DNA of 64,000 bases from Acidobacteriota bacterium (GTDB taxonomy: Bacteria > Acidobacteriota > Vicinamibacteria > Vicinamibacterales > SCN-69-37): contig JBDTNQ010000004.1 of NCBI GenBank assembly GCA_039933635.1, positions 31,880 through 95,879 on the forward strand, read 5' to 3'. The notes under the pieces were generated by a model. The model was not told the origin of the DNA. It did no database searches and saw nothing but the letters and a program-made list of their open reading frames with translations. Both the position numbers and the translations under genes were made by a program. Position 1 is the first letter of the stretch; every line of letters starts with the position of its first letter. Below are positions 2,057 to 25,646 of this stretch, piece after piece.

Positions 2057-3927
2057 GATGGCCTCCAGGCGCCGGCCTGCGGCGCGAGGACGACCGCGCC
2101 CTCGGGCGGCAAACACCAACCCCCGAGTCGAACCACCGGGAAGACGCCTGGACCGCCGAATGCGGGATCATCACTGGACCAGATCGTGGACCAGCGATGG
2201 CCGGCCGGCGCCGCGAGCAGCGGTTCGGGCACGATGTTCATGTCGAGTTGTCCGCCGAGGTTCACGAGCAGCAGTCGATCATTTTCGAACCGCTCGGCGC
2301 TCCGTTCGAAGAAGCGCAGGACGAACGCCTGCGGGCCGAGCACCGCGCCATCGATGTCGTGGCGATCGTGCATGCGGAAGGCCGCTTCGGACGTGCGCAA
2401 CTGAAGCAGCGAGGCGTGCAGCGCCCGGATCGCCGAACGCTCGGGCGTCTCATCACGACGCAGCTTGCACCGCTCGAATGTGTCGCGGTCACAGGGATCG
2501 CTCATGATGCCCGAGCGCACGGCATCGGCAACGCTCGGAAACTGCCCGAGGAAATCCCGTCGTCCCGCTCGAATGAGGTCCGCCAACCCGCCGCCGTGAT
2601 CGGCGAAATAGAGGAACGGCACCGGCGCGGCGAACTCCTGCCCCTGAAACAGCATTGGAACCCATGGACCGAGGAGCAGCAGCGCGGTCAGCGCACGCAG
2701 CTTGCCGGCACTGGTCACGTCGTGCAGCCGAAATCCGTGAGACGAGTTCGCAATCTGATCGTGGTTCTGCAGGAACGCCACGAAGGCATCGGCGGGGTGA
2801 CGCAAGGCCGGGGTGCCGCGGCCCTTGTCCTGCCACGAGTACCACTGTCCCTGATACAGGAAGCCGTACTTGGCGGCCGAAATGAACTCCTGCGGCGAGC
2901 CTGCGTAGTCGGTGTAATAGGCTTCGCGCCGTCCCGTGGCCGCCACCATTGCCGCGTGGTGCAGGTCGTCGTTCCACAACGCATCGAGTCCCTGGCCGCC
3001 CGTGTCGATGCTCGAGGTCAACTCGCTGTCCTGCGGTTCGCTCTCACCGACCACCCACGTTGCTCGTCCGTCCGCGGCCTGCCGGACCGCGGCTGTGACC
3101 TCGGCGAGAATGTGCGGCGTCGATCGATCGTGGATGGCCTGGGTCGCATCGATGCGTAGTCCGTCCAGATGGAACTCGCGGATCCAGTACGCGGCGTTGG
3201 ATACGAAGAACTCACGAACCCCCGCGGACAACGGTCCGTCGAAGTTGATGCCCTGGCCCCATTCGTTGCCGTCGTCGCCAAAGTACGCGCGCGTGAACGG
3301 CGCCAGGTAGCAGCCGTCCGGTCCGAAGTGGTTGTAGACGACGTCGAGAATCACCCCGATGCCAAGGTGGTGGGCGGTGTCCACGAAGTCGCGGAAGTCG
3401 TCGGGCGCGCCGTAGAGGCGTGTCGGCGCGAAGAGGTTCACGCCGTCATATCCCCATCCGAAGTCACCGGCGAAATCAGCGACCGGCATGATCTCGACGC
3501 AGGTCACGCCCAGTTCGGCGAGTGCCGCGAGTTCCCGCGCGGCAGCTTGCCAGGTGCCGTCGGCGGTGAAGGTGCCGATGTGGATCTCATACACAACCAG
3601 CTCTGAACGACGGATGCCTGGCCACCCGTCATCCGTCCACCGATAGGTGCCGGGAGCGACGACCGCGGACGGGCCGTGCGGGCCGTCCGGCTGAAAGCGG
3701 GACGCGGGATCCGGCAACGGCGAGCTGTCATCCACCGTGATGCGATAACGATCGCCCGCCACCGAACCCTGGATCAGCCCTTCGAAGTAGCCATTGCCTT
3801 CCGACCGGAGGGCAATAGGCGGATCTGTCTCGATCTGAATCTCGACGCGTAGGTGGTTGGGCGCCCAGACCCGGAAGTGCACGCCCGCAGGCTGGATCTC
3901 GGCACCGACAGGGCACGCGCGGTGCAC
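2053..3927 (-). CDS. treZ: Malto-oligosyltrehalose trehalohydrolase
   Basis: ORF 2053..4029(-). GVHFRVWAP N-terminal domain followed by a GH13 catalytic core (VYEIHIGTFT, ILDVVYNHFGPDG, GLRIDA). GTG 3927 (AGAGG upstream) is preferred over TTG 4029, but the start is uncertain. Confidence 0.85.
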   Translation of the reverse strand: MHRACPVGAEIQPAGVHFRVWAPNHLRVEIQIETDPPIALRSEGNGYFEGLIQGSVAGDRYRITVDDSSPLPDPASRFQPDGPHGPSAVVAPGTYRWTDDGWPGIRRSELVVYEIHIGTFTADGTWQAAARELAALAELGVTCVEIMPVADFAGDFGWGYDGVNLFAPTRLYGAPDDFRDFVDTAHHLGIGVILDVVYNHFGPDGCYLAPFTRAYFGDDGNEWGQGINFDGPLSAGVREFFVSNAAYWIREFHLDGLRIDATQAIHDRSTPHILAEVTAAVRQAADGRATWVVGESEPQDSELTSSIDTGGQGLDALWNDDLHHAAMVAATGRREAYYTDYAGSPQEFISAAKYGFLYQGQWYSWQDKGRGTPALRHPADAFVAFLQNHDQIANSSHGFRLHDVTSAGKLRALTALLLLGPWVPMLFQGQEFAAPVPFLYFADHGGGLADLIRAGRRDFLGQFPSVADAVRSGIMSDPCDRDTFERCKLRRDETPERSAIRALHASLLQLRTSEAAFRMHDRHDIDGAVLGPQAFVLRFFERSAERFENDRLLLVNLGGQLDMNIVPEPLLAAPAGHRWSTIWSSDDPAFGGPGVFPVVRLGGWCLPPEGAVVLAPQAGAWRPS

Positions 3928-4089
3928 GGTGACCTCTGCTGTCGTGGCCGACAGGGCTCGTGGAGATGACAGTGGAGCCTCCTCGTCTTCTGCCCAGCAG
4001 GACGAAAGTGATTGTGAACGATGTGACAACGAACCGCCAGCTCACGCGTCGAGGCGTCAGCGGTCGATGACGCACGCTAGACACACGCA

Positions 4090-4119
4090 GGGAGGCACCG
4101 GCGTGAGCCGATGCCTCCC
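4090..4119 (-). terminator. Terminator-like GC-rich hairpin downstream of csbD
   Basis: GGGAGGCAC-CGGC/GTGA/GCCG-ATGCCTCCC forms a stem of about 13 bp with one mismatch, about 20 nt after the csbD stop. There is no clear U-tract. Confidence 0.35.
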
Positions 4120-4138
4120 CGTGACACGTTGCCGTTGT

Positions 4139-4363
4139 CTACCGCGCCGCCTTCGCGTCTTCGATGTCCTGACTGGCCAGGAAGCGGTCTACCTCTTCGC
4201 GGGCGCGCTCCTTGGCATAGCCATAGCGCTCCTGAACGAAGCCGGCCAACTTCTCTGCGTTGCCCTGCGCCTGTGTCAGTTCGTCATCGGTGAGCTTGCC
4301 CCACTGGGCTTTCGCCGCCCCCTTCCACTGACGGAACTTGCCTTCGATCTGATCGGTGTTCAT
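4139..4363 (-). CDS. csbD: CsbD-family general stress protein
   Basis: 74 aa. MNTDQIEGKFRQWKGAAKAQWGKLTDDELTQAQGNAEKLAGFVQERYGY is the typical CsbD repeat pattern. AGGAGA RBS upstream. Confidence 0.85.
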   Translation of the reverse strand: MNTDQIEGKFRQWKGAAKAQWGKLTDDELTQAQGNAEKLAGFVQERYGYAKERAREEVDRFLASQDIEDAKAAR

Positions 4364-4375
4364 GTTGTCTCCTGA

Positions 4376-4963
4376 CTACTTTTTCGGACCAATGGTGAGG
4401 TCGTTGACGACGCGCGTCACGCCCTCGGTGTCTTTTGCCAGAACTTCAGCGCGAGCCTTGCCGGCGCTCGACGGAACGGTGCCCTTGAGAGTGACCACGT
4501 TGTTCTTCGTGTCCACGTTGATGTCGCTGTCCTTCAGGGCGTCTTCGCCGAGGAAGAACCACTTCACTTTTGTCGTGATCCACGCGTCATCAATCTTGGC
4601 GCCAGTTTTATTGAGGCCGGCCTTCGTGCGATCCGTCAGGGTCTTGTCTGCGTCCGGCGTGACGGTGATGTCGCTCTCCACCCGACGGACGCCGGTGACC
4701 TGCGCCAGGCGCGCGGCTTCGGCCTTTTGCGCGGCTGTCGCCACCTGCCCGGACAGCATGGCGATGCCGTCGTCGACCTTGACCTTGAGGTCGTATTTCC
4801 GGACCGCGGCGTTCGTCTCGAGACGGAATGCGATGCGATCCGCCAGATTCGCGTCCGTAGGTTTTGCGGCGACGGTCTGAGCCGTGACGGCCGGCGGAAC
4901 GATCGCTGCCGCCGCGAAGACGGACAGCGCGGCGACGAACCCGATGTGCGTTCTCAGTGACAT
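4376..4963 (-). CDS. BON-domain (OsmY-like) periplasmic stress protein
   Basis: Signal peptide plus two BON-like modules (KVKVDDGIAMLSGQVATAAQKAEAARLAQVTGVRRV and DVDTKNNVVTLKGTVPSSAGKARAEVLAKDTEGVTRVVNDL). AGGAGG RBS upstream. Confidence 0.85.
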   Translation of the reverse strand: MSLRTHIGFVAALSVFAAAAIVPPAVTAQTVAAKPTDANLADRIAFRLETNAAVRKYDLKVKVDDGIAMLSGQVATAAQKAEAARLAQVTGVRRVESDITVTPDADKTLTDRTKAGLNKTGAKIDDAWITTKVKWFFLGEDALKDSDINVDTKNNVVTLKGTVPSSAGKARAEVLAKDTEGVTRVVNDLTIGPKK

Positions 4964-4972
4964 GCAGTCCTC

Positions 4973-5614
4973 CTATTTTTCCCGCGTAACGTTTTGAAGA
5001 CCGATCGGCTGGATGTCGTAGTTTTCCAGCACGACGTTGTTCGAGTCCTTGTCGAAGATCACCTTGGTCGCGACCGAGGCCTTACCCTCGCCCTTGCCGT
5101 CTGATCCGACGCGGAGTTCCACCAGGGTGAAGGGATAGTCGAGCGTGCGTGAGCCGCTTCGCATCTCCCAGATGCTCATGGGCCGGTCTGTGATCAACAC
5201 CACGCGCTCGGTGTTATTGGGTCCGAGGACGCGGCGCGCGAAATGAATCTCCTGGCCGATACTGCCAGCGGCCGCGATCGAGCCGGCGCGCGGCATGTCC
5301 TTCAGTTTGTCCAACACCGCGTCCGGACCCTTCTCGCGAAGCGCGTTCACCAGCGCGTCCCGCTCCGCATCGGTGGACCAGCGCGATATCACGATCGACA
5401 CCGGCGTCGTCGCGGGGGCCGCGCCGGCCGCGGACATGTTCACGGCCGTGGCGGTGAACCGCTCGGTCGCGGCCGCAGTGGCTTGCGCGGACTGCGGCGG
5501 GCGCGTCGCTTGCGTCGATTGAGCCGCTTGGACCCGACATACCAGGGCGACGGACGTGAGCGCACAGAGGGGAAGGACGAATAGCGAGATCAACGACGTT
5601 CGCTGCCGCATCAT
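4973..5614 (-). CDS. Secreted hypothetical protein, first gene of the stress operon
   Basis: ORF 4973..5800(-) trimmed to ATGATG at 5614, with AAGGAG at 5626..5621. The product begins MMRQRTSLISLFVLPLCALTSVALVCRVQAAQS, a signal peptide. No family recognised. Confidence 0.6.
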   Translation of the reverse strand: MMRQRTSLISLFVLPLCALTSVALVCRVQAAQSTQATRPPQSAQATAAATERFTATAVNMSAAGAAPATTPVSIVISRWSTDAERDALVNALREKGPDAVLDKLKDMPRAGSIAAAGSIGQEIHFARRVLGPNNTERVVLITDRPMSIWEMRSGSRTLDYPFTLVELRVGSDGKGEGKASVATKVIFDKDSNNVVLENYDIQPIGLQNVTREK

Positions 5615-5638
5615 TGGGGGCTCCTTGCCCTCTGGTTG

Positions 5639-5655
5639 AGCAAGAGCTGGGCCAA
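5639..5655 (-). promoter_or_regulatory. Sigma-54 (-24/-12) promoter candidate for the secreted-protein/BON/csbD operon
   Basis: Minus strand reads TGGCCCAGCTCTTGCT, with exact GG-N10-GC spacing against the consensus TGGCACG-N4-TTGCW. The -12 C lies 26 nt from the ATG at 5614, so the predicted TSS is just 5' of the SD. Confidence 0.55.
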
Positions 5656-5708
5656 TTGAAAAATGGCGGGTGATACGCAGCAACCACCGGAAGTCCAACG
5701 GGAGCCAT

Positions 5709-5734
5709 GGGCACCTCGATGCTAAGAAGTGCCC
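5709..5734. promoter_or_regulatory. Inverted repeat GGGCAC-N14-GTGCCC between divergent sigma-54 promoters (candidate activator site)
   Basis: Perfect 6-bp arms at 5709-5714 and 5729-5734. The centre is about 69 nt upstream of the -24 of the minus-strand promoter and about 55 nt upstream of the -24 of the treY promoter. Confidence 0.35.
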
Positions 5735-5774
5735 CGGTGATGCCCCGTGCGAATCGCTTGACGGGCGGTGCGCG

Positions 5775-5790
5775 TGGCCCATCTTCTGCA
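5775..5790 (+). promoter_or_regulatory. Sigma-54 promoter candidate for treY
   Basis: TGGCCCATCTTCTGCA with GG-N10-GC spacing and the same TGGCCCA -24 half as the divergent promoter. The -12 C lies 16 nt from ATG 5805, which implies a nearly leaderless mRNA. Confidence 0.4.
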
Positions 5791-5804
5791 GGGTCGTCAA
5801 GGCG

Positions 5805-8465
5805 ATGAATGCAGACGTCCCCGGCTATCCGAGCAGCACCTATCGTCTTCAAATGCGATCGGGCTTTGGGTTTCGCGACGCCCTCGCGGCCGTGCCGTAC
5901 CTGCACGCCTTGGGCATCTCCGATCTCTATCTATCTCCGATCGCAACGGCCAGGCAGGGCAGCGAGCACGGCTACGACGTCGGCGATCCGAACACGCCGG
6001 ATCCCGCTCTGGGCACGACTGACGAGTTCGAGGCGTTGGTCCAGGCTGTCCAGCAGCACGAAATGGGGCTGCTGCTCGATGTCGTCCCTAATCACCTGGC
6101 CGCAGACGAGCGGACCAATGTCTGGTGGAGGGACGTGCTCCAACGCGGCGCGGCATCGCCCTTCGCGCACTTCTTCGACATCGATTGGAACCCCACGCGC
6201 ACGGCCATGGCCGGGAAAGTGCTGTTGCCTGTTCTTGGCGCGCCCTACGGGGAGACCTTGGCCTCCGGCCAGCTGCAGGTCGTCACCGATGAGGACGGAT
6301 GGCGACTGGCTTACGGCGATCGCCGGTTTCCGCTAATCAATCCGCACGGCGAGGATCTCTCCGCGATTAACGGTATCGCGGGACATCCCGCGTCATTCGA
6401 TCGTCTGCACGGCTTGCTCGAGGCCCAGCACTACCGTCTGGCCGACTGGCGGACCGCGTCGCAAGAGATCAACTACCGCCGATTCTTCAACATCGAACAC
6501 CTCGTAGGGCTTCGCGTCGACGAGCAGGATGTGTTCGAGGCCTCTCACATGTGGCTTCGGCGTCTGCTGCGACGCCGCGCCATCACCGGCGTGCGGGTCG
6601 ATCATCCCGACGGTCTCGCCGACCCGGCCGAGTACCTGAGGCGGCTGTGCCGCCTGGGATCGGATGAGCTCGATGAACTGAACCAGGAGGTGATACCCGC
6701 GCGGCCCTATGTGGTGGTCGAGAAGATTCTCGTTCCGGGGGAACGGCTGCCCGAGTCGTGGCCGGTCGCCGGCACGACGGGGTACGAATTCCTGAATGTA
6801 CTCAACGGGCTGTTCATCGCGCGCCACCACATGCCGATGCTCGCACGCATTTACACCCGCTTTGCCGGTCGTCGCCCGTCGTTTGCAGAGACCGGGTACA
6901 TCGCCAAACGGCAGGTCATGGAGTCGACGTTCACCGCGGATCTGGATCGCCTGCTCGTGCTTCTCCATGCGATCGCGGAGGGCGACAGGGTGACGCGTGA
7001 CTTCACCCGGCATGGCCTTCGTCGCGGCCTCGTGGAGATCACGGCGGCGTTGGCTGTGTATCGGACCTACGTCACCTGTCAGGGCTGCTCTTCGGAAGAC
7101 CGGGCGTGGCTCCTCCAGGCCTGCCAGTCCGCTGACCAACGCAACCCCGATCTGGAGACCGCGTTGCTGATGTTCATCCGCGACACCATCGTCGAAGCCC
7201 AGGCGGACCCGGCCCGCCTGGAGTTCGCGGTCCGCTGGCAGCAGTTCACTGGGCCGGTGTTCGCCAAAGCCGTGGAAGACACGGCGTTCGTCCGCGACAG
7301 CATGCTGGTGTCGTTGAATGAAGTCGGCGGCGATCCGGCGCATCCGGGCACCGGCGTACGTGAGTTTCACACGCTCAATCAGGAACGCCGGGAGCGGACA
7401 CCATTCGGATTGCTGGCGACGACCACGCACGACACGAAGGTCAGCGAGGACGTGCGTGCGCGGCTCGATGTCCTGTCGGAATTGCCGGACGCGTGGGCGC
7501 AGGGTCTGGCGGAGTGGCGTCGTCTGAATCAGCGACACCGCGTCCTGACGCCGCAGGGCGCCGCACCAGACCGCCACGACGAATACCGGTTCTATCAACT
7601 GTTGGTCGGCCTCTGGCCAGCCGACGGTTCATCAGCGCCCGCATCGGTCGTCGAGCGATTGACGGCGGTCATGATCAAGAGCGCGCGCGAGGCCAAACGC
7701 CACACGAACTGGATTCGCCCGGATGCGACCTATGAGGACGCGCTGACCGCGTTCGTGCGCGACGCCATCGGCCGGGACCTCGCGTCCCCATTCATTCGAT
7801 CGCTCTCGGCATTCGCGCGATGCGTCGCGAAGGCCGGGATGGTCAACTCGCTGGCCCAGACAGTACTGAAGATCGGATCGCCAGGCGTGCCCGACTTCTA
7901 TCAGGGAACCGAGCTGTGGAGTCTTCGCCTGACCGACCCCGACAACCGCGCGGTGGTCGATCTCGAATACCGCCAGCGACTGCTGCAGGACCTGAACGGT
8001 GCCATGGCGACGGCGGGCGAGGCTGACCGGCCTGGTCTGGTCAGCGACCTTCTCAATCGATGGGAAGACGGCGTGGTCAAGATGTTCGCGATCACCGAAG
8101 CGCTGCGGCTCCGGAGATCCTGCCCGGCGCTGTTCACCACAGCCGAGTACCTCCCGCTCACCGCCCAGCTGGATCCCATCGTTCCCTCCGGCCCTCAGGT
8201 CGTCGCGTTCGTTCGGCGCATGTCGCGCCACGTCGCGTTGGTGGCCGTGCCCCGATTCACCGCCGCCATCGTGGACCAGGGCCGTTGGCCGATCGGAACG
8301 GACGTGTGGGGGGAGGCGATGCTGAGTCTGCCAGCCGGCTGCGAGAGCCTGACGTTCTCCAACGTCTTCACCGGGGAGAGGCTCGGCGCCGCCGATGGTG
8401 GTCTGCGCGTCGCCGCGCTACTCCGCCGATTTCCGGTCGCACTCGCCGTCGCGGGCCTCGAGTAA
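5805..8465 (+). CDS. treY: Malto-oligosyltrehalose synthase
   Basis: ORF 5670..8465 trimmed to ATG 5805. N-terminus STYRLQMRSGFGFRDALAAVPYLHALGISDLYLSPI and DVVPNHLA are typical of TreY. Confidence 0.9.
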   Translation: MNADVPGYPSSTYRLQMRSGFGFRDALAAVPYLHALGISDLYLSPIATARQGSEHGYDVGDPNTPDPALGTTDEFEALVQAVQQHEMGLLLDVVPNHLAADERTNVWWRDVLQRGAASPFAHFFDIDWNPTRTAMAGKVLLPVLGAPYGETLASGQLQVVTDEDGWRLAYGDRRFPLINPHGEDLSAINGIAGHPASFDRLHGLLEAQHYRLADWRTASQEINYRRFFNIEHLVGLRVDEQDVFEASHMWLRRLLRRRAITGVRVDHPDGLADPAEYLRRLCRLGSDELDELNQEVIPARPYVVVEKILVPGERLPESWPVAGTTGYEFLNVLNGLFIARHHMPMLARIYTRFAGRRPSFAETGYIAKRQVMESTFTADLDRLLVLLHAIAEGDRVTRDFTRHGLRRGLVEITAALAVYRTYVTCQGCSSEDRAWLLQACQSADQRNPDLETALLMFIRDTIVEAQADPARLEFAVRWQQFTGPVFAKAVEDTAFVRDSMLVSLNEVGGDPAHPGTGVREFHTLNQERRERTPFGLLATTTHDTKVSEDVRARLDVLSELPDAWAQGLAEWRRLNQRHRVLTPQGAAPDRHDEYRFYQLLVGLWPADGSSAPASVVERLTAVMIKSAREAKRHTNWIRPDATYEDALTAFVRDAIGRDLASPFIRSLSAFARCVAKAGMVNSLAQTVLKIGSPGVPDFYQGTELWSLRLTDPDNRAVVDLEYRQRLLQDLNGAMATAGEADRPGLVSDLLNRWEDGVVKMFAITEALRLRRSCPALFTTAEYLPLTAQLDPIVPSGPQVVAFVRRMSRHVALVAVPRFTAAIVDQGRWPIGTDVWGEAMLSLPAGCESLTFSNVFTGERLGAADGGLRVAALLRRFPVALAVAGLE

Positions 8466-8538: not shown

Positions 8539-9393
8539 ATGAACCTCGCGTCTGTACCGCTTCCCGGCCGCCGGGCTGCGCTCGTTGTGGGCCACCCAGG
8601 CCATGAACTTCGCGTGCATCGCTGGATCGAATTGGCGAAGCCGGAGACGTGCGTCTTGACCGACGGTTCCGGACGGACCGAGCGGTCGCGGCTGCCATCC
8701 ACTTCACGCGTGTTGATGTCTGCAGGCGCGCGCCCGGGCACCGTTTTTGGCTCGTTTGCCGATGCCGAAATCTACGATTTGATTCGCAGGGGCTCCCCGG
8801 CCCCGTTTGTCGAGGTCATGGCGATACTTGCGGACCGATGGATCGCCGCCGACGTCGACTACGTCGTCGCGGACGCCCTCGAGGGCTTCAATCCCAGCCA
8901 CGACATCTGCCGGTACTTGGTCAACGGCGCGGTGGCGCTCGTGCGGAAGCACACGGGACGCGTCGTGGCGAACTTCGATTTCCTGCTCGATGGCAGTCCC
9001 ACGTCGTGTCCGGACGATTTGAAATCCGCGGCCGTCGTTGTGAACCTGGACGATGAAGCGCTGGCTCGGAAGCTCGCGGCAGCGCGGGGATATCCCGAGC
9101 TGCAGGGCGAAACCGACGCGGCATTGGCGCGGTTCGGACCCGCGGCATTCGCGGTCGAAATGCTGCGACCCGTGTTGGATGTTCGCCAGGGCGTCGACGC
9201 GATCGATCCGGACCCACCGTTCTACGAGGCCTTTGGCGAGCGACAGGTTCGAGCGGGACACTACGACTCAGTGATCCGTTACCGTTCTGCCGTCCAGCCA
9301 CTTGTGCGGGCCATCTGGCATCAGGCCGGCCTGGAGTCCGCCGGGATGACGACCGACACCGTGACTTCGTCGGCAACGGGCGGCTGCAGGTAG
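8539..9393 (+). CDS. LmbE/PIG-L-like deacetylase-fold protein with variant motifs
   Basis: VVGHPGHE...LTDGSG...NPSHD resembles the PIG-L AHPDDE/TxG/HxDH pattern but with substitutions. The 3' end overlaps the convergent GT4 gene by 73 nt. Confidence 0.4.
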   Translation: MNLASVPLPGRRAALVVGHPGHELRVHRWIELAKPETCVLTDGSGRTERSRLPSTSRVLMSAGARPGTVFGSFADAEIYDLIRRGSPAPFVEVMAILADRWIAADVDYVVADALEGFNPSHDICRYLVNGAVALVRKHTGRVVANFDFLLDGSPTSCPDDLKSAAVVVNLDDEALARKLAAARGYPELQGETDAALARFGPAAFAVEMLRPVLDVRQGVDAIDPDPPFYEAFGERQVRAGHYDSVIRYRSAVQPLVRAIWHQAGLESAGMTTDTVTSSATGGCR

Positions 9394-10832
9394 TCCAGCC
9401 ACCGCAAGCCTTCCTGCACCAGCGCGATCCGCAGGCGGTAGATGCCCGGCTGCGTCGGCGCGGCGATCTGCATGGCTCTCTCGCAGTCCTCGCCCGCCGC
9501 AATCGAAGGCAGGGAGGTGCGTGCGCCTTCCGCGACAAGCGGCTCACCCGTGGCCGCGTCCAGCCAGCGATAGGACAAATCAACCGGATACGGGGGAAAC
9601 GTTCCGAGAGAGGTCGTCAGCCCGTTTCGCACCTCGGTCTCCACACGGAGTGTTGCAGCGGCGTTGACCGTCACCGGCGATTTGAGGATGCGGATGCGCA
9701 CCTTCGCGCATTCGTCGTCGGTCAACGCCTCCATGCGGAACGGACGTCGGTACTCTGCGAGCGCGGCTTCCACGGCGCTGAGGTGCTGGACCGCACGGGT
9801 GGCATAGTCGCGCACATCCTGCTCGAATCCGCGAACCGCCAGCGGGTTCGACAGGGCCGCGCGATATACGGCGAGATAGGAGTTGACCGCCGAGCCGAGT
9901 CCTGCGGTGTGGCGGACTACGCTGCTGACCTCACGGGCGTCGTCGGCATCGTAGCCCCGCACCGCGGCGACGATCGCGTGCACATCGAGCGGCGCGCGAA
10001 GGGTGCGACGGCCGAAGTTCCACCACCGGAGATCATCGACGTTCGCCGACGTCACCATGGGCCCGAGACCCGTCGCGTCGCAGAGCACGACCGCGCATCC
10101 GACCGCCATGGCTTCTATCGCACACCGCGCCTTCGCGAAGACGAGGTCATACGCGCCCAGCACGAGTTCCGGCGCCGCCTGCTCGTTGCCGACGCCGGAG
10201 CCCAGGACGTCGAGCGGCAGGCCCAGCCGGCCGCAGGCCTGCTGGGTCGGCTCAAGGTGGGTGCCCTGCTGCGCGTAGTTGCTGAAGATCGCGGCGCGGC
10301 GCGGATGGGGAGGCAGCGGGCCGCGTGGCCTGAAGCGATCCATCTCGATGGCATTGGGAATGACGGTCGTCAACGCCGTCGGGATGCCGTAGTCGGCGGT
10401 GAGGCGCTCCAGGCAGTTGAAGTCCACCGCCACGTACCGCTGGATGCGGTCGATTAACGGCGGGGCGGAGGCGACCGCCGAGCGGTCGTGACACACGAAC
10501 ACGGCGGCAGCCGCTGGAAAGGTGAGAAGTGCTGCCACCGTTTCCACATGGTGGTGACCGTGGATGATGTCAGGCGTCTTCGGCAACGCGTCCAACCTGT
10601 CAACCACGGGGATTCCGGCGGCGCGGAGGTCATCGGCGATGGCCCCGAGCGTCGGTGCGTACACCATCGGCGTATGGCCCGCGGCGAGTAGGCCGATGGC
10701 GAGGGCGCGCGTGGCCGTCTCGGTGCCGGTACGACCGGCGAGCGTGACGTTGGTGAGGAGAATCCGCCACGGGCGGTCAGGAGCGACGGAAGCAACGGGC
10801 GGGGATTCGTGCATCGCGCGGTACGATTGCAC
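9321..10832 (-). CDS. Glycosyltransferase family 4-like protein with an extra C-terminal beta-rich domain
   Basis: The N-terminus RILLTNVTLAGRTGTETATRALAIGLLAAGHTPMVY...IIHGHHH matches the GT4 N-domain pattern. The C-terminal ~150 aa were not recognised. Confidence 0.7.
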   Translation of the reverse strand: MQSYRAMHESPPVASVAPDRPWRILLTNVTLAGRTGTETATRALAIGLLAAGHTPMVYAPTLGAIADDLRAAGIPVVDRLDALPKTPDIIHGHHHVETVAALLTFPAAAAVFVCHDRSAVASAPPLIDRIQRYVAVDFNCLERLTADYGIPTALTTVIPNAIEMDRFRPRGPLPPHPRRAAIFSNYAQQGTHLEPTQQACGRLGLPLDVLGSGVGNEQAAPELVLGAYDLVFAKARCAIEAMAVGCAVVLCDATGLGPMVTSANVDDLRWWNFGRRTLRAPLDVHAIVAAVRGYDADDAREVSSVVRHTAGLGSAVNSYLAVYRAALSNPLAVRGFEQDVRDYATRAVQHLSAVEAALAEYRRPFRMEALTDDECAKVRIRILKSPVTVNAAATLRVETEVRNGLTTSLGTFPPYPVDLSYRWLDAATGEPLVAEGARTSLPSIAAGEDCERAMQIAAPTQPGIYRLRIALVQEGLRWLDYLQPPVADEVTVSVVIPADSRPA

Positions 10833-10866: not shown

Positions 10867-11172
10867 TCAGCGCACGAGCTGTCGCTGAGCGTCGCGATTG
10901 ATGGCGCGGGCGGCCCGTTCCGCGTCGCGACGCGATTCCTCGTCGCGCGCCGAGTTGCCAGACGCGGCGCTGGGCGGCAATCCCGGCGGGGGCGTGGCGG
11001 CCTCGGTTTGGAGCTGGGCCACCGCGTCGGCTTCCTCCCGTTCGGCCTCCAGCCAGTCCTCCACGTCGTATCCGTGAAGACCGCCGCGCGCCTCGAATCG
11101 CGCGAATGCGCGTGCCGTAATGCGTTGCTGTTGACCGCTGTCGTGTCGGTCCGGGTCGAGGTCGTTCTCCAT
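10867..11172 (-). CDS. DUF2934-domain protein
   Basis: ORF 10867..11433(-) trimmed to ATG 11172, with GGGAG at 11185..11181. ITARAFARFEARGGLHGYDVEDWLEAEREEA matches the DUF2934 signature. Confidence 0.7.
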   Translation of the reverse strand: MENDLDPDRHDSGQQQRITARAFARFEARGGLHGYDVEDWLEAEREEADAVAQLQTEAATPPPGLPPSAASGNSARDEESRRDAERAARAINRDAQRQLVR

Positions 11173-11196: not shown

Positions 11197-11212
11197 TGCA
11201 AGGGCGTTGCCA
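11197..11212 (-). promoter_or_regulatory. Sigma-54 promoter candidate for the DUF2934 gene (and possibly GT4)
   Basis: Minus strand reads TGGCAACGCCCTTGCA with GG-N10-GC spacing. The -12 C lies 26 nt from the ATG, the same geometry as the 5639..5655 promoter. The 14-bp palindrome TGCGGCGCGCCGCA sits at 11254..11267. Confidence 0.55.
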
Positions 11213-13497: not shown

Positions 13498-15003
13498 TCA
13501 TCGCTCCAGCGGCGCATCAGGCGGGGCGCTGATGCCGCACTCCTTCATCTTATTCAGAAGCGTCTTGTAGCTGACGCCAAGTCGTTCGGCCGCCTTGCGC
13601 CGATTCCACCTGAAATAGTCGAGCGTGCGACGGATGGCCTCGCGTTCGGCCACCAACGCGGCTCGGCGTGCGAGGTCGGGAAGTGTCTCGTCCGCTTGCG
13701 CCGCGCGAGGCGCTGGCGGTGCCGCGACTGGCGAGGCGGCCGGCGGCGCGACGGGCGCCGGAGGGGCCATCCCTGGTGGCGTTGGTGGAGGTTCGGGCTG
13801 CGCCTCCGCGACCGGGCGAACGCGCATGACCTCCGAACGGACCAGCGATTCGTCCTGAAGAATGACAAACCGCTTGATCAGATTTTCGAGCTCGCGGATG
13901 TTGCCGGGCCATGCGTAGGCGCGCAGCGCATCACGCAAGGCCTGCGACGGCTTCAGCGCCGGCCGCCCATACCGCGCCGCGTATCGCAGCAGAAAGAACT
14001 CGACGAGCGGCAGAATTTCGTCCTGCCGCATGCGCAGCGGGGGCACGCGGATCTCGATGACCTGGAGGCGGTAGTACAGATCCTCGCGGAACGATCCCAG
14101 ACGGATCATCTGCTCCAGGTCGCGGTTGGTGGCGGCGATCACGCGGACGTCGACGGCGACGGGCCGGTTGCTGCCGAGCCGCGCGAATTCCTGATCCTGC
14201 AGCACGTGCAACAGTTTCGCTTGCAGGGACAGCGGCATTTCGCCGATCTCGTCGAGCATGATCGTCCCGCCGGTCGCGAACTCGAACTTGCCGATGCGCG
14301 ACTGCTGCGCACCGGTGAAGGCGCCGCGCTCGTGGCCGAACAGTTCGCTTTCCAGAAGCTCGGCCGGGAGCGCGGCGCAGTTCACCTTGACGAACGGTCT
14401 CATGCGCCGGCCTGACCGCCGGTGCAGCTCCCTCGCGATGACTTCCTTGCCGACGCCGCTCTCGCCGGACAGCAGCACAGTCACGTCACTGTCAGCGACG
14501 CGCTCCACCATCGTAAGGACGCGGCGCATCGCTTCGCCCGATCCCCAGCATGGCTGCGCGCCGTCCGGCTCCTCGGTGACCTGCGCGCGCAGGCGCGCCA
14601 CTTCGCTCGTGAGGTTCATTTTTTCGACCGCGTTGCGGATCGCGGCTTCGAGAGCGGCCTCCCCGAGACCTTCCGGATCGTCCGGCTTGACCACGTAGTC
14701 CACCGCGCCGAGGCGGACGGCGTCGACGATGGTGGCCGGCACTTGCGAGCCGGAAAGCATGATGACCTGTACGCCGGGGTGGGACTGACGCGCCGCACGG
14801 AGCGTCTCGAGCCCATCCATGCCCGGCATGAGGACGTCGAGCAACACCACATCAGGCGCCCACCCTCCGCGCGACAGCGTCTCGAGCAGATCGGCGCCGC
14901 TCGGGTGGGTGCGCACGTCGTAGCCGCGCGAACTCAGCAGCGCGGCGAGATAGTCGGCGAACGAGGGGTCGTCGTCGACAAGCGCGATGCGCGCGGCGTT
15001 CAT
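13498..15003 (-). CDS. Sigma-54-dependent response regulator (receiver + AAA+ GAFTGA + Fis-type HTH), paralog 1
   Basis: ORF trimmed to ATG 15003 (GGAGG RBS). MNAARIALVDDDPSF receiver, GESGVGKE Walker A, ERGAFTGA, and the C-terminal helix RWNRRKAAERLGVSYKTLLNKMKECGI. Confidence 0.9.
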   Translation of the reverse strand: MNAARIALVDDDPSFADYLAALLSSRGYDVRTHPSGADLLETLSRGGWAPDVVLLDVLMPGMDGLETLRAARQSHPGVQVIMLSGSQVPATIVDAVRLGAVDYVVKPDDPEGLGEAALEAAIRNAVEKMNLTSEVARLRAQVTEEPDGAQPCWGSGEAMRRVLTMVERVADSDVTVLLSGESGVGKEVIARELHRRSGRRMRPFVKVNCAALPAELLESELFGHERGAFTGAQQSRIGKFEFATGGTIMLDEIGEMPLSLQAKLLHVLQDQEFARLGSNRPVAVDVRVIAATNRDLEQMIRLGSFREDLYYRLQVIEIRVPPLRMRQDEILPLVEFFLLRYAARYGRPALKPSQALRDALRAYAWPGNIRELENLIKRFVILQDESLVRSEVMRVRPVAEAQPEPPPTPPGMAPPAPVAPPAASPVAAPPAPRAAQADETLPDLARRAALVAEREAIRRTLDYFRWNRRKAAERLGVSYKTLLNKMKECGISAPPDAPLER

Positions 15004-15070
15004 CGGACCTCCTGTGTCCACCGGCGTGTGTAGCTGGCAAGAACCGGTCGGCCCATCACATTGCCCACAA

Positions 15071-15088
15071 TGGGCAATCATCTTGCCA
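15071..15088 (-). promoter_or_regulatory. Sigma-54 promoter candidate upstream of activator paralog 1
   Basis: Minus strand reads TGGCAAGATGATTGCC with GG-N10-GC spacing, and the leader to ATG 15003 is about 60 nt. The -12 region overlaps the perfect palindrome ATTGCCCA-CAA-TGGGCAAT (15060..15078). Confidence 0.5.
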
Positions 15089-15318
15089 ACGACGCGGGAC
15101 GCGTCGTACGCCGTGTCCTGCGGTGCCGAACCTGGGCCGGTGGAACTTCCTCGCTGCGCATTGGCACGGCCGGTACTTCTTACGCACCGGTCCTTCCAAC
15201 ACTTTCCAGGCCTGGATTGCCTCAATTCATCGCGTCCGATCGTCGATTCGGCCACCGGCACGAAGCGTGCAGTAAACGACGCGACAGCCGGCGGCGGCCG
15301 GCGGGAGGATGGTGAACC

Positions 15319-15468
15319 ATGTTGATGACGATCTTCGTGCTGTTGTTGATTCTGTGGCTGCTGGGCATGGTCAGTTCGTACACGCTCGGGGGCTTCATCC
15401 ACCTCCTGCTCCTGATTGCGATCGCCGTCGTGCTGATCCGCATCATCCAGGGCCGGCGTCCGGTCTAA
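15319..15468 (+). CDS. lmo0937-family small membrane protein (49 aa), absent from the supplied ORF track
   Basis: Hand translation gives MLMTIFVLLLILWLLGMVSSYTLGGFIHLLLLIAIAVVLIRIIQGRRPV*. GGGAGG lies about 10 nt upstream. The stop is 5 nt before the tamA-like start. Confidence 0.7.
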   Translation: MLMTIFVLLLILWLLGMVSSYTLGGFIHLLLLIAIAVVLIRIIQGRRPV

Positions 15469-15473
15469 CCCCG

Positions 15474-17384
15474 ATGATCTGGTGCCGGACCCTCACGCGT
15501 CTGCTCGGTTGTGTCGCGTGGGTGATCATCGTGGCGGCGCAGGCCGAAGCCCAGAGCACCGTACGTTTGACGTCACTGGCGATTGACGGCGCACATGCTA
15601 TCCCCGCAAAAGAAATTCGTGCGGTGCTGGCCACCAAGCCTGGAGGGCGCTGGCCGTGGTCTGAGAAGACGCCATTCGATCAGCGGACGTTCGAGGCCGA
15701 CTTGGAGCGGGTCCGGCGTTTCTATCAGGACCGCGGTTATCCGGACGCCCGCATCGACAACGTGGACGTGGTGTTCAACGATGCCCGAGACGCGGTGAGG
15801 GTGACCATCACGATAGGTGAGGGGCAGCCGCTCCGTGTGGCGAGCGCATCGTTCGTGGGGTTCGAGGCCGTGAGCCCGGAGGTGCTGGCGGGGATCGATC
15901 GGTCGGTGGTCGAGCCCGACCGGATTCGCGACCGAGGCGCAGTGGCTGGCCTGCGGCAACGGCTGCTCGATGGCCTGCGCGATCACGGGTACGCGTACGC
16001 GAAGGTGAACGCCACCGAAGTGGAGGAGGCGGGCAACAACCGTGTCGCGCTGACATTCACCGCCGTTCCTGGGCCCCCGACGACCTTTGGTCCCATCACG
16101 GTGGTTGGCGCGCAGAAGATCGAGGATCGCATCATTCTTCGGCAGCTCGTTCTCCGGCCGGGCCAGCCATTCACCGAGCGGCAGATCACCCAGAGCCAGC
16201 GACGGCTGACGAGCCTCGAGATCCTGAAGTTCGCAAATGTCGACGCGAAGCCGCCGGCTGAAAGTCAGCCGACAGCGATTCCCGTCACCGTGACGGTTGC
16301 CGAAGACAAGACGCATCGTCTTGAACTGGGTGTCGGCTACGGGACCGAGGATCGGGTGCGAGCCTCGGTTGACTGGTCCCATCTGAACTTTCTGGGTGAT
16401 GCGCGGCGGTTGACGTTGTCCGGGAAATTTTCCTCGATAGATCGCGGCGGCCGCGTGAGCTTCTCGCAGCCCTACTTTCTGGGACGTGGCTTGTCGCTCG
16501 ACGCGAGCGCGGTCGACTGGTGGACGGGCGAAAACGTCTACACGTCCACGACCTACGGCGGGCGTACGGGCGTGACCTATCGGTTTCGCGGTCGCGGACG
16601 GACCGAAGGGCGCGGTGCCGGTGGTGGCCGACCCGGGGACAGCCTGCGCGTGGCGTACGTCTACGAGTTCCTGCGCTACACCGTACGACCGGCGGTGTTG
16701 GCTGACCTGAGCAACGTGGGGCAATTGCTGGCCTTGGGCTTGAACCCCGTGACCGGTGCCGGAAGCGGCACGAAGTCGGCCGTTGCTGCCGACTTCACTC
16801 ACAGTGCCACTGACAACGTGGCCGATCCCCGTGCGGGTTGGACCACATCCCTGCACGGGGAAGTCGCGAGCCCGGCCCTGGGCGGCACGTTTCGGTACCG
16901 GGAGGCGGTGGCCGAGACGCGTGCGTACTTGCCGTTGGGCCCGGCTGTCCTGGCGACCCGGCTGCACGCGGGATCGATCGCCGCCCGTTCGGATGCAGAC
17001 TTCCCGTTTTCGGATCGCTTCTTTCTCGGAGGGGCGTCGAGTCTCCGAGGTTGGTCACGCTACGAAGTGGCGCCGCTCACCGACGGCGTACCGATCGGGG
17101 GGCGCACGATGATGGAGATGTCCGTTGAGTTGCGCGTGCCGCTGCGTGGCCCGATCGGGGTCGTCGGCTTTGTGGATACGGGCAACGTGTGGGCGCGGAG
17201 CTTCGCAGCGACCACCGGCGGGTTTCGCTCCGATGCCGGCATCGGCCTGCGGTATCGCACGCCGGTCGGACTTCTGCGCGGCGACGCCGCGTTTCAGCTG
17301 AACCCGATTCCCGGGCTTCTCGTGGACGGCGTCCCTCAGTCCCGCACGTGGCGCATTCATGTGAGCATCGGGCAGGCTTTCTGA
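15474..17384 (+). CDS. Omp85-family outer-membrane assembly protein (TamA/BamA-like)
   Basis: ORF trimmed to ATG 15474. Signal peptide, POTRA-like repeats (EADLERVRRFYQDRGYPDARI) and a C-terminal beta-barrel ending in F. It lies directly upstream of a TamB-like gene. Confidence 0.8.
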   Translation: MIWCRTLTRLLGCVAWVIIVAAQAEAQSTVRLTSLAIDGAHAIPAKEIRAVLATKPGGRWPWSEKTPFDQRTFEADLERVRRFYQDRGYPDARIDNVDVVFNDARDAVRVTITIGEGQPLRVASASFVGFEAVSPEVLAGIDRSVVEPDRIRDRGAVAGLRQRLLDGLRDHGYAYAKVNATEVEEAGNNRVALTFTAVPGPPTTFGPITVVGAQKIEDRIILRQLVLRPGQPFTERQITQSQRRLTSLEILKFANVDAKPPAESQPTAIPVTVTVAEDKTHRLELGVGYGTEDRVRASVDWSHLNFLGDARRLTLSGKFSSIDRGGRVSFSQPYFLGRGLSLDASAVDWWTGENVYTSTTYGGRTGVTYRFRGRGRTEGRGAGGGRPGDSLRVAYVYEFLRYTVRPAVLADLSNVGQLLALGLNPVTGAGSGTKSAVAADFTHSATDNVADPRAGWTTSLHGEVASPALGGTFRYREAVAETRAYLPLGPAVLATRLHAGSIAARSDADFPFSDRFFLGGASSLRGWSRYEVAPLTDGVPIGGRTMMEMSVELRVPLRGPIGVVGFVDTGNVWARSFAATTGGFRSDAGIGLRYRTPVGLLRGDAAFQLNPIPGLLVDGVPQSRTWRIHVSIGQAF

Positions 17385-22796: not shown

Positions 22797-23483
22797 ATGT
22801 CGACGCGTGTGCTGGTGATTGCAATCGACGGTCCGTCCGGAGCGGGGAAGGGCACGGTGTCGCGAACGGTCGCCGACGCGCTGGCCTACCGGCACATCGA
22901 TACCGGAGCCATGTACCGCGCCGTGGCCTGGCTGGCCCGGCACGTCGGGCTGGATCTCACGGATGCCGGTGCCGTGGCGGCACTGGCGCGGACGGCCTCG
23001 ATCGATCTCGGCCCATCCATTGTCATCGACGGGCACGATGTGACGGCGGCGATCCGCACCGCGGAAATGGATCGTGCCGCGGCGATCGTCGCCCAGCATT
23101 CGCCGGTGCGGAAGGTGCTCGTCGATCGCCAGCGAGCGTATGGCGAAGCCGGCGGGGTTGTCATGGAGGGCCGCGATATCGGCAGCGTCGTCTTTCCGTC
23201 CGCGGATGTGAAGGTCTACCTCGACGCGTCGCCCGAAGAGCGGGCCCGGCGCCGGACGCTTGATGCGGCCCACGCGGCAAGTCGCGAGATGCAGGTCCAG
23301 GGCGTCGCCGACGCGCTGGCGGCTCGGGATCAAGCGGATCGCACGCGGACCGTTTCACCGCTCACCATTCCCGACGGCGCCGTGTACATCGACACGACCG
23401 GGCTGTCGATCGACGCGGTGGTCTCACGGGTGATGGCGCTCGTGCACGCGCGCCAAGCGTCGATCAGTCCGGTGGCGCCGTAA
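22797..23483 (+). CDS. cmk: Cytidylate kinase
   Basis: IAIDGPSGAGKGTVSRTVADALAYRHIDTGAMYRA is the canonical Cmk N-terminus. Confidence 0.9.
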   Translation: MSTRVLVIAIDGPSGAGKGTVSRTVADALAYRHIDTGAMYRAVAWLARHVGLDLTDAGAVAALARTASIDLGPSIVIDGHDVTAAIRTAEMDRAAAIVAQHSPVRKVLVDRQRAYGEAGGVVMEGRDIGSVVFPSADVKVYLDASPEERARRRTLDAAHAASREMQVQGVADALAARDQADRTRTVSPLTIPDGAVYIDTTGLSIDAVVSRVMALVHARQASISPVAP

Positions 23484-24933
23484 TCCCGCACTCCTTCATC
23501 TTGTTCAACAGCGTCTTGTAGCTCACGCCCAGCGCTTGGGCGGCCTTGCGCCGGTTCCACCGGAGGCGATCGAGCACGTCCTGAATCGCCGCACGCTCCG
23601 CGGCCAGCGAGGCGCGACGCGCCACTTCGGGCAGCGATGCGATCGCGCCATCGGTCAGCGGTTCATCCGGTTCGGACCGGGCCGGTCGGCTGGCGCGTGA
23701 CGCAGGTTCTGCGCGCAGCGGAGGCTCGTCGACCGCCGCGTCGCCGCCGCGGTGACGCTGGAGCTCACCGAGCACCATGTCCTCGTCTTGCAGGATGACG
23801 AACCGCTTGACGACGTTCTCGAGTTCGCGCACGTTCCCGGGCCACGCGTACCCCAGGAACGCCTCGCGCAATCGCGCCGATGGCCGCACCGTTGGACGCC
23901 CGTATCGCGCCGCGTACTTGATGAGGAAGAACTCCGCGAGCGCGAGGATTTCGTCGCGGCGCTCGCGCAGAGGCGGCACGCGGATTTCGATGACCTGGAG
24001 GCGGTAGTACAGATCCTCGCGGAACTGCCCCGCGCGGATCATCTGATCGAGCTCGCGATTCGTAGCGGCAATGACACGCACGTCGACCGAGACGGGACGG
24101 TTGCTGCCCAGGCGGCTGAACTCGCGGTCCTGCAGCACGTGCAGGAGCTTGGCCTGCAGCGCGAGAGGCATCTCGCCGATCTCGTCGAGCATGATTGTGC
24201 CCTGATGGGCGTACTCGAATTTGCCGACGCGCAGCAGCTGTGCGCCCGTGAACGCACCGCGCTCGTGTCCGAACAGCTCGCTTTCGAGCAGTTCGGCCGG
24301 CAGCGCCGCGCAGTTGACCTTGATGAACTGTCGCGTGCGTCGCGCCGAGCGCCGATGGAGTTCACGCGCAATGACCTCTTTGCCGACGCCGCTCTCTCCG
24401 GACAGGAGCACGCTGACGTCGCTGTCGGCCACGCGCTCGACCATCGTGAGCACGTTGCGCATCGGGATGCCCGATCCCCAGCAGGGCTGCGCGCCATCGG
24501 GATCGTCGGTCACATGCGCGCGGAGGCGCGCGACCTCGCTCGTCAGCCGCACCTTCTCGACCGCGTTCCGGATCGCCACCTCCAGCGCGGCTTCCCCAAG
24601 ACCTTCGGGGTCATCCGGTTTGACGACGTAGTCGACGGCACCGAAGCGCACGGCATCCACGATTGTCGCGGGCACCTGCGTGCCGGACAGCATGATGACC
24701 TGCAAAGCGGGGTGCGCCGACCGGGCCGCCCGCAGTGTCTCGAGTCCGTCCATCTGCGGCATCAGGACGTCGAGCAAGACCACATCCGGCGGCGTGCCAC
24801 TGCCCAGCGCGCGGAGCAGCTCGGGCCCGCTCGAGAACGCGCTCACCTGATAGCCGCGATCGGTCAGCAGCGTGGACAGGTACTGCGAGAAGGTCGAGTC
24901 ATCATCGACGATGGCGACACGGGCGGCGGTCAT
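23464..24933 (-). CDS. Sigma-54-dependent response regulator, paralog 2
   Basis: Same three-domain architecture as paralog 1, with long identical peptide runs (VPATIVDAVR, AVDYVVKPDDPEGLGEAALE, KVNCAALPAELLESELFGHERGAFTGAQ). The start forms an ATGA overlap with the upstream kinase-like gene. Confidence 0.9.
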   Translation of the reverse strand: MTAARVAIVDDDSTFSQYLSTLLTDRGYQVSAFSSGPELLRALGSGTPPDVVLLDVLMPQMDGLETLRAARSAHPALQVIMLSGTQVPATIVDAVRFGAVDYVVKPDDPEGLGEAALEVAIRNAVEKVRLTSEVARLRAHVTDDPDGAQPCWGSGIPMRNVLTMVERVADSDVSVLLSGESGVGKEVIARELHRRSARRTRQFIKVNCAALPAELLESELFGHERGAFTGAQLLRVGKFEYAHQGTIMLDEIGEMPLALQAKLLHVLQDREFSRLGSNRPVSVDVRVIAATNRELDQMIRAGQFREDLYYRLQVIEIRVPPLRERRDEILALAEFFLIKYAARYGRPTVRPSARLREAFLGYAWPGNVRELENVVKRFVILQDEDMVLGELQRHRGGDAAVDEPPLRAEPASRASRPARSEPDEPLTDGAIASLPEVARRASLAAERAAIQDVLDRLRWNRRKAAQALGVSYKTLLNKMKECGITAPPD

Positions 24934-25589: not shown

Positions 25590-25631
25590 GTCTAGCCACT
25601 TTCGGGTGATCTTCGCATGGGCGCCAGCCGG

Positions 25632-25646
25632 TGGCACAGTCCTTGT
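25632..25646 (+). promoter_or_regulatory. Weak sigma-54-like promoter candidate upstream of the receiver gene
   Basis: TGGCACAGTCCTTGT has a perfect -24 TGGCAC and correct spacing, but the -12 is GT rather than GC. The implied leader to ATG 25679 is about 21 nt. Confidence 0.25.

Follow-up and report, generated by a model that had tools for sequence, protein, structure and literature searches.

Comparison with related genomes argues that the 190-nt spacer between treY, the maltooligosyl-trehalose synthase gene, and a divergent operon for a secreted protein, a BON-domain protein and a CsbD-like protein holds two sigma-54-dependent promoters together with an activator element, and that these are part of a larger regulon in which sigma-54 and an NtrC-family regulator control genes for trehalose synthesis and stress proteins. 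We put the probability of this reading at about 0.7. The spacer lies in a 64-kb stretch of DNA (66% GC) from an Acidobacteriota bacterium, which is the whole of the DNA analysed and is called the window (WIN) below, and all of the evidence for the sigma-54 reading is comparative sequence analysis. The features at the center of the argument are as follows:

4973-5614, minus strand: secreted-protein gene, the first gene of the stress operon (213 aa, signal peptide, ATG at 5614, ribosome-binding site AAGGAG at 5626-5621)
5639-5654, minus strand: sigma-54-type promoter P_sec, TGGCCCAGCTCTTGCT (GG at 5653-5652, GC at 5641-5640), facing the secreted-protein gene
5708-5747, no strand assigned: enhancer-like element (TGGGCA at 5708-5713; core TAAGAAGTGCC at 5723-5733 on the plus strand; direct repeat TGCCCCG at 5730-5736 and 5741-5747)
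5709-5714 and 5729-5734, no strand assigned: inverted repeat GGGCAC-N14-GTGCCC with a 14-nt spacer, within the enhancer-like element
5775-5790, plus strand: sigma-54-type promoter P_treY, TGGCCCATCTTCTGCA (GG at 5776-5777, GC at 5788-5789), facing treY
5805-8465, plus strand: treY (Alpha-amylase domain; ATG at 5805; N-terminus ...STYRLQ aligned across loci)

The original prediction, made from this DNA alone, had read the two outer sequences as a divergent sigma-54 promoter pair with exact GG-N10-GC spacing, each promoter facing its gene. Both sequences are present to the base at the positions listed, the spacing and the outward orientation hold at both promoters, and the spacing is invariant in the orthologous sites. 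The predicted transcription start of P_sec is near 5628, a short way ahead of its AAGGAG ribosome-binding site, and that of P_treY is near 5801, 4 nt before the treY ATG, which would give a leader of about 4 nt. Because the distance from GCA of P_treY to the ATG is only 14 nt, the treY transcript is predicted to be nearly leaderless; treY has no ribosome-binding site ahead of its ATG.

Relatives were gathered as 80 metagenome loci through homologues of the secreted protein, plus several closer contigs. The divergent layout of treY and the secreted-protein gene, with CsbD, is common to six independent loci (L001, L002, L111, L112, L124 and L125; L113-L117 are near-identical to L112 and were not counted as independent), and a BON gene lies between the secreted-protein gene and CsbD in all of these except L001 and L002. 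Their secreted proteins are 55-57% (L001, L002, in which TreY is 62% identical) or 70-71% (L111, L112, L124, L125) identical to that of the window. P_sec is kept as TTGGC[CG]C-N4-TCTTGCT in L001, L002, L030, L110, L111, L112, L118, L124 and L125, and P_treY as TGGC[CG]C-N4-TTCTGCA in L001, L002, L111, L112, L124 and L125, so that both -24/-12 motifs stand in register in the six independent relatives while their flanks diverge, as the conservation check proposed with the prediction had called for. Averaged over pairs of loci, identity is 0.88 in P_sec and 0.75 in P_treY (the latter value includes one locus that is misaligned by an insertion) versus 0.44 over the remaining 126 spacer columns. 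The distances to the genes are also kept: TTGCT of P_sec lies 11-17 nt from the ribosome-binding site AAGGAG across relatives, and GCA of P_treY lies exactly 14 nt from the treY ATG in five of seven loci. Two of the loci with P_sec, L110 and L118, contain the secreted-protein homologue in other genomic contexts and also retain TTGGC..GCGTCTTGCT.

The association with the secreted-protein family extends beyond these loci. Sufficient upstream sequence beside a secreted-protein homologue is available for 74 metagenome loci, and 21 of them have TGG-N9-TGC on the coding strand no more than 100 nt from the start of the homologue. With a lineage weight matrix built without the sites of the window, scores of at least 12 near these genes occur 19 times on the coding strand, and not once on the reverse strand or inside the gene. 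P_sec has the top score of the window in this matrix (17.3), and P_treY scores 11.0; against the consensus YTGGCACGrNNNTTGCW, P_sec matches 12 of the 14 specified positions and P_treY about 10. The pattern TGGCNCNNNNNYTGCW has two matches on both strands of the 64 kb, namely P_sec and P_treY, where 0.65 are expected and at least two occur in 14 of 100 shuffles; we estimate that the placement of two random matches within 152 nt of one another, on opposite strands and facing outward, contributes a further factor of roughly 1e-3. By their conservation in relatives P_sec, P_treY and the central element are clearly non-random. Farther afield, no conserved -24/-12 motif precedes treY in 26 loci (L003-L029, other phyla), and the treY promoter is therefore specific to this clade. 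One of these, L003 (TreY identity 53%), has treZ, treY and glgX and is without bEBP1 (below), the secreted-protein operon and the treY promoter motif.

What is the conserved unit between the two promoters? It had been described as a perfect inverted repeat in the position of an enhancer, and the perfect GGGCAC-N14-GTGCCC is indeed there, with its center 69.0 nt from GG of P_sec and 55.0 nt from GG of P_treY. A conserved element at this place is upheld by the comparison; the perfect repeat is specific to this genome, and relatives keep its GGGCA/TGCCC arms, which match at five of six positions. The repeat alone does not stand out (these 221 nt contain 13 inverted pairs whose arms are at least 6 nt long), and looser copies of it with up to two mismatches occur across the window at chance level (8 found, 7.4 expected). 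This search pattern was too narrow; the inner core proved to be the informative part. In the treY direction the conserved form is TGGGCA-N6-TGCT[GA]AGAAGTGCCC, with the asymmetric inner block TGCT[GA]AGAAG, and identity across seven loci is 1.00 for TGGGCA, 0.33 for the N6 spacer and 0.86 for TGCT plus core. The center of the element is exactly 69 nt from P_sec in five loci although the sequence between them has diverged. Since relatives keep only partial arms and the asymmetric inner block, the functional unit appears to be better described as an element of about 40 bp with core TRAGAAGTRCC than as a perfect repeat.

When the core derived from the treY loci alone (TRAGAAGTGCC, up to one mismatch) is searched for in the window, five matches are found where 1.05 are expected, and five or more occur in none of 100 shuffles. 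Three of the five lie 78-86 nt upstream of sigma-54-type promoters. The pair is thus not isolated: the window contains three copies of the element, and its promoters of the sigma-54 type number at least six. The additional sites, with the genes that they accompany, are the following:

11197-11212, minus strand: sigma-54-type promoter P_DUF2934, TGGCAACGCCCTTGCA, upstream of the 101-aa DUF2934 gene (10867-11172; Pfam DUF2934)
13498-15003, minus strand: bEBP1, NtrC-family response regulator (Pfam Response_reg, Sigma54_activat at 6e-72, HTH_8; GAFTGA at about 14325)
15073-15088, minus strand: sigma-54-type promoter P_bEBP1, TGGCAAGATGATTGCC, 70 nt upstream of the bEBP1 ATG
15163-15198, minus strand: second copy of the element, TGGAAGGACCGGTGCG-TAAGAAGTACC-GGCCG-TGCC (core at 15172-15182), between P_bEBP1 and P_DUF5670
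15256-15271, plus strand: sigma-54-type promoter P_DUF5670, CGGCACGAAGCGTGCA, divergent from P_bEBP1 and ahead of the 49-aa DUF5670 gene
15319-15468, plus strand: DUF5670 gene, 49 aa (Pfam DUF5670 1.1e-12), followed by Omp85/TamA and TamB
26220-26241, plus strand: third copy of the element, GGGGCACTTCTTT-CCCG-GTGCC (minus-strand core AAAGAAGTGCC; arms GGCAC-N10-GTGCC)
26298-26313, plus strand: sigma-54-like promoter TGGCACGTGGATTGAA, with a perfect -24 (TGGCAC) and GA for GC in the -12 (TTGAA)

At the bEBP1 locus the arrangement of the treY spacer is repeated, with two divergent promoters and a copy of the element between them. P_bEBP1 is identical in L127 and L128, and L001 has TGGCAAAAGGATTGCC, which differs from it at two spacer positions; P_DUF5670 is identical in the window, L127 and L128, and 0.03 matches to it are expected by chance. 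The core of the second copy, GTAAGAAGTACCG, which equals the treY-element core with one change, is invariant in the window, L127, L128 and L001, and its distance upstream of TGG of P_bEBP1 is exactly 94 nt in the window and in L001 alike. Taken together, the core copies of the window stand 78-86 nt upstream of TGG of P_sec and of the 26298 promoter and of CGG of P_DUF5670; for P_treY and P_bEBP1 the upstream distances are 52 and 94 nt. The third copy, whose core (26222-26232) has one mismatch, starts 78 nt upstream of the 26298 promoter, which precedes a gene for a 151-aa membrane protein and then a YtxH-like gene (26766-27095). The membrane-protein ATG at 26327 lies 13 nt after the 26298-26313 site and has no ribosome-binding site; the orthologous 147-aa gene of L132 (1751-2194) is preceded by TGGCACACGACTTGAA at the same 13-nt distance from its ATG, which suggests that sites of this type produce leaderless transcripts from a variant -12. 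Sites of the TGGCACGTGGATTGAA and CGGCGCGAACCTTGAA class are candidate sigma-54 promoters with a variant -12. P_DUF2934 is the second-best match to the lineage matrix in the window, and in L001 the orthologous site is TGGCAATGCCCTTGCA (9168-9183), with unrelated flanks.

The window also encodes candidate activators, three NtrC-family proteins with an intact GAFTGA motif, and we know of no role for this motif other than contacting sigma-54. For bEBP1 the best NCBIfam matches are ntrC and atoC, both under the equivalog cut-offs. Its stop overlaps the glgX start by 20 nt (13498-13517), and the activator is therefore probably co-transcribed with this glycogen debranching gene. The bEBP1 orthologue of L001 is also beside glgX and is 73% identical (TreY of L001 is 62% identical). 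A paralogue, bEBP2 (23464-24933), is 75% identical to bEBP1 and adjoins a HisKA-domain gene and a single-domain receiver gene (the trio spans 23464-26107); thus a histidine kinase gene is adjacent to bEBP2, and there is none near bEBP1. One protein that was considered as a bEBP1 orthologue, P0141 of L132, was rejected and is a bEBP2 orthologue. In L132 the bEBP2 trio stands beside TamA/TamB without a trehalose cluster, and for this reason the trehalose/bEBP1 block of the window may be the product of an insertion or a duplication.

Placing treY and the secreted protein-BON-CsbD operon under sigma-54 control, as first proposed, is supported by the sequence comparisons above, both by the in-register motifs and by the GAFTGA activators, and the explanation that we favor is as follows: P_sec would drive the secreted protein-BON-CsbD operon and P_treY would drive treY, and we infer that sigma-54 binds at both and that an NtrC-family enhancer-binding response regulator binds the element between them. 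A kinase would phosphorylate this regulator, on a signal that the gene content suggests to be water or osmotic stress; the phosphorylated regulator would assemble on the element and, by DNA looping, reach sigma-54 holoenzyme that is already bound at each promoter as a closed complex; its hydrolysis of ATP would open both. The same element-plus-promoter module would operate upstream of bEBP1, together with the divergent DUF5670 gene, and upstream of the YtxH-like operon, and the DUF2934 gene, with its further sigma-54-type promoter, would be part of the same regulon. The most likely activator is bEBP1, which adjoins glgX and would then activate its own gene; bEBP2, with the same recognition helix, could act in its place.

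Several observations weigh against this explanation. The scan of the 64-kb window with the lineage weight matrix gave no overall excess of sites over a Markov null; density alone is not enriched, and because of this it cannot decide the sigma-54 case. The six-frame translation of the window contains no RpoN-box, and there is no rpoN gene in this stretch. Sigma-54 promoters do not usually give a near-leaderless mRNA such as the one predicted from P_treY. In the asymmetric element the repeat arms, separated by 14, 7 and 10 nt at the three copies, are conserved only in part, and at the treY locus of L001 and L002 its core is degraded (TGAGATTGGGCC) despite intact promoters. No copy of the element was found upstream of P_DUF2934, where the window and L001 were compared and have no element in common, and the YtxH-type promoter occurs also in L132, whose available sequence shows an orthologue of bEBP2 alone. 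Finally, bEBP1 and bEBP2 have the identical recognition helix LGVSYKTLLNKMKECGI, so the activator is not assignable to one of the two paralogues.

Could the central element itself be a promoter? Its plus strand reads TGG-N9-TGCT with GG-N10-GC kept in seven of seven loci, the pattern of conservation described above (TGGGCA at 1.00, N6 at 0.33 and TGCT onward at 0.86) is promoter-like, and the copy at the bEBP1 locus also reads TGG-N9-TGC in the window, L127 and L128. The outer motifs would then still be sigma-54 promoters, and the element would be a third, tandem one (TGGGCA-N6-TGCT) directed toward treY from about 5733, with the enhancer elsewhere or absent. We consider this unlikely, given that TGG is never followed directly by G at the 22 lineage sites, that TGC is preceded by T at 19 of them and by A in the element, and that the site falls under the listing threshold of the lineage matrix. 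Moreover, TGG is offset from the core by 15, 16 and 10 nt in the three copies, which is no fixed -24/-12 register; in the L001 copy at the bEBP1 locus TGG is shifted by one and GC has become GT while the core is invariant; and the element is always found 52-94 nt upstream of better promoters, which is the geometry of an enhancer. The conserved blocks might instead be ordinary transcription-factor operators or the promoter of another sigma factor, with a coincidental -24/-12 likeness and transcription by sigma-70-family factors. In other bacteria CsbD, YtxH and trehalose genes belong to the classic targets of sigma-B, sigma-S or EcfG, and in Bacillus, E. coli or alphaproteobacteria CsbD and trehalose genes are transcribed by a sigma-70-family holoenzyme. 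GG-N10-GC is frequent in DNA of 66% GC, and the matrix scan alone is not significant; however, a pair of conserved blocks 4-5 nt apart, in which GG and GC are invariant and the spacer varies, is known for sigma-54 alone, and six promoters show this pattern, each properly spaced from a start codon. Nor did motif scans point to another promoter: no sigma-70-like promoter was found in 4300-6300 or 3800-4400, TTGACA-N17-TATAAT has no match in 5600-5820, and the EcfG-type motif GGAAC-N15-18-CGTT is absent from 5600-5820 and at chance level across the window, while the cluster does encode GAFTGA activators. We therefore judge this alternative, operators or a promoter of another sigma factor, to be quite improbable.

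For the minus-strand motif, a role in RNA is conceivable as well: within a longer 5' leader its CTCTTGC could mask GCAAGGAG by base pairing and so serve as an anti-Shine-Dalgarno sequence. Around the ribosome-binding site of the window, GCAAG-GAGC offers a pairing partner for GCTCTTGC, and at many distant homologue loci GGAGGTT has a complement, AACCT, some 40 nt upstream. In relatives, though, pairing is limited to 3-4 bp (CTTG/CAAG) between two invariant partners; the idea would leave unexplained why the TGGC half is conserved, and likewise the motif on the treY side and the other four promoters; and a search of the spacer against Rfam at a permissive E-value returned two sub-threshold chance matches, neither near a gathering score. 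We regard an RNA element as very improbable, and return to the reading of the spacer as two sigma-54 promoters and an activator element.

Divergent sigma-54 promoters that share activator sites in their spacer are known from Escherichia coli zraP/zraSR (ZraR) and hyc/hyp (FhlA) and from Klebsiella nifHDK/nifJ (NifA), and the arrangement described here resembles these cases; at zraSR, as at the bEBP1/DUF5670 pair, the activator gene is one of the two transcription units. The present system differs from them in its targets, which are trehalose synthase, CsbD, BON, DUF2934, DUF5670 and YtxH-type genes, in its phylum, Acidobacteriota, and in its asymmetric element with core TRAGAAGTRCC, which is unrelated to ZraR, FhlA and NifA sites. 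The canonical sigma-54 consensus reportedly reads TGGCAC-N5-TTGCW (attributed to Barrios et al. 1999). Like it, the sites of this lineage have invariant GG and GC 10 nt apart, T before GG, and TTGCT or CTGCA at -12; unlike it, the lineage prefers TGGCCC/TGGCGC or TGGA at -24, and some related promoters (26298-26313, L132 and 33 of the 74 homologue loci) have TTGAA at -12. In gene content there is a striking overlap with the sigma-B regulon of Bacillus and Listeria, which has analogues under sigma-S and EcfG: CsbD, YtxH-like, lmo0937-type DUF5670 and BON/OsmY-like proteins, a short-chain dehydrogenase similar to YdaD, a general stress protein of Bacillus (in L001), and compatible-solute synthesis. 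The likeness is one of function only; the promoters here are of the -24/-12 type, which needs an ATPase activator, and not of the sigma-70-family type under partner switching or an anti-sigma factor. RpoE2 is said to be linked to trehalose in Sinorhizobium.

The original prediction knew of no description of sigma-54 control of these genes in this lineage. A precedent exists in Pseudomonas, where treY, treZ, treS and glg genes are down in an rpoN mutant of P. fluorescens and the same is reported for a kinB background of P. aeruginosa (PMC8202526). Sigma-54 there has a positive effect on treY, treZ, treS, glgX, glgA and related genes, whose trehalose/glycogen clustering is similar to that seen here; the basis is transcriptome data, and no treY promoter is reported in the portion available, where the window has promoter motifs directly upstream of treY (PMC8202526). 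The Pseudomonas RpoN system also differs in phylum and in the co-regulated stress proteins. Our literature search found no paper linking sigma-54 to CsbD and none describing sigma-54 in Acidobacteria, and a broad comparative study of sigma-54 makes no mention of trehalose, glycogen or Acidobacteria (PMC3162934). The machinery is thus known, and what is new is the target set and the lineage, in a poorly studied phylum.

By its TreY relatives the window belongs in Acidobacteriota, near metagenome-assembled genomes labelled Vicinamibacterales or Solibacteraceae (34-62% identity among genome contigs; 75-81% in the metagenome loci L111, L112 and L124). Trehalose biosynthesis genes are reported to be enriched in the soil-preferring classes of this phylum (PMC11245096). 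Soils harbor Vicinamibacteria and other soil-preferring Acidobacteriota in abundance, and the regulation of trehalose genes in them is essentially unknown. If the sigma-54 reading is correct, protection against drought and osmotic stress would be switched on there by a phosphorylation-dependent ATPase activator acting on sigma-54 rather than by a stress sigma factor, which would imply a tight off/on control logic and provide a concrete signalling protein to study; the promoter and enhancer motifs could be used for annotating stress regulons in Acidobacteriota metagenomes. With its candidate promoters directly ahead of treY, the result also takes the link between RpoN and glycogen/trehalose genes recorded in Pseudomonas (PMC8202526) into another phylum. 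More tentatively, and at rather less than even odds, sigma-54 with one or two paralogous NtrC-type regulators might serve in Vicinamibacterales as the master regulator of a general-stress/desiccation regulon (trehalose, CsbD, BON, YtxH, DUF5670, DUF2934 and the YdaD-like dehydrogenase), in the role of sigma-B, sigma-S or EcfG elsewhere, with a lineage-specific enhancer (TRAGAAGTRCC), near-leaderless transcripts and a -12 subclass with TTGAA for TTGCA.

The remaining features of the stress operon are these:

4376-4963, minus strand: BON-domain protein gene (Pfam BON 2.9e-34), 9 nt downstream of the secreted-protein gene
4139-4363, minus strand: CsbD-like protein gene (Pfam CsbD 7.3e-20), the last gene of the short operon
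4090-4119, minus strand: GC-rich hairpin GGGAGGCA-N14-TGCCTCCC, directly after the CsbD stop and without a T run

The gene identities proposed earlier for CsbD, BON, the secreted protein and TreY were borne out by Pfam, with the secreted protein remaining without a family, and Pfam also confirms TreY, TreZ, the glycogen debranching enzyme and GlgX in the cluster. The short secreted-BON-CsbD operon probably ends at the hairpin, before treZ, and treZ and the debranching enzyme gene may therefore be under separate control; the hairpin was missed by the terminator scan, which demands a T run. The secreted 213-aa protein has no Pfam or NCBIfam match and 371 homologues (E <= 1e-3), the few of which with a named source are all from Vicinamibacterales/Acidobacteria. 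Its AlphaFold model (pLDDT 77) consists mostly of beta strands, with two helices after the signal peptide, and a comparison with the PDB gave nothing significant (top match E 0.08, TM below 0.37).

A number of minor observations were made at the sites described above. Directly upstream of the -24 element of P_sec lies a hairpin followed by T residues (GGTGGTTGCTGCGTATCACC CGCCATTTTT; 5669-5688, minus strand), which weakly resembles a terminator and is not kept in relatives. A possible autoregulatory operator is the 7-bp inverted repeat TTGCCCA-TTG-TGGGCAA (15060-15078), which overlaps the -12 element of P_bEBP1 and of which L127 and L128 retain a part. The palindrome GGAAGTTCC at 15142-15150 (GGAACTTCC in L127 and L128), about 30 nt downstream of the core at the bEBP1 locus, resembles a second GAAGTNCC. 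The open reading frame at 15309-17384 (Omp85/TamA) is over-extended at its 5' end, and its first part overlaps the real DUF5670 gene in another frame. Two one-mismatch copies of the core, GGGCACGTCTCAAGGTGACGGCGCCC and TGAGAAGTGCT, lie inside coding regions (57675-57700 and 10523-10533) with no promoter-like site near, and are probably chance matches.

Upstream of the secreted-protein homologues, 33 of the 74 metagenome loci (within L030-L109, for example L041, L048, L049, L060, L082 and L106) have a conserved CGGC[GC]CGAACCTTG[AT]A, 38-44 nt from the start. It shares the register of the sigma-54 motif, with GA or GT in place of GC at -12, and lies in a short gap behind a co-directional gene that ends in ...ETMLTPAARK; it could be a promoter class with a non-canonical -12, the binding site of another protein, or an anti-Shine-Dalgarno stretch. 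Two further TGG-N9-TTGCA sites stand beside trehalose clusters, one at 853-868 of L001 (minus strand), upstream of a short-chain dehydrogenase gene that we read as YdaD-like, and the other at 3019-3034 of L003 (plus strand), upstream of a gene for a membrane protein of the YihY/BrkB family.

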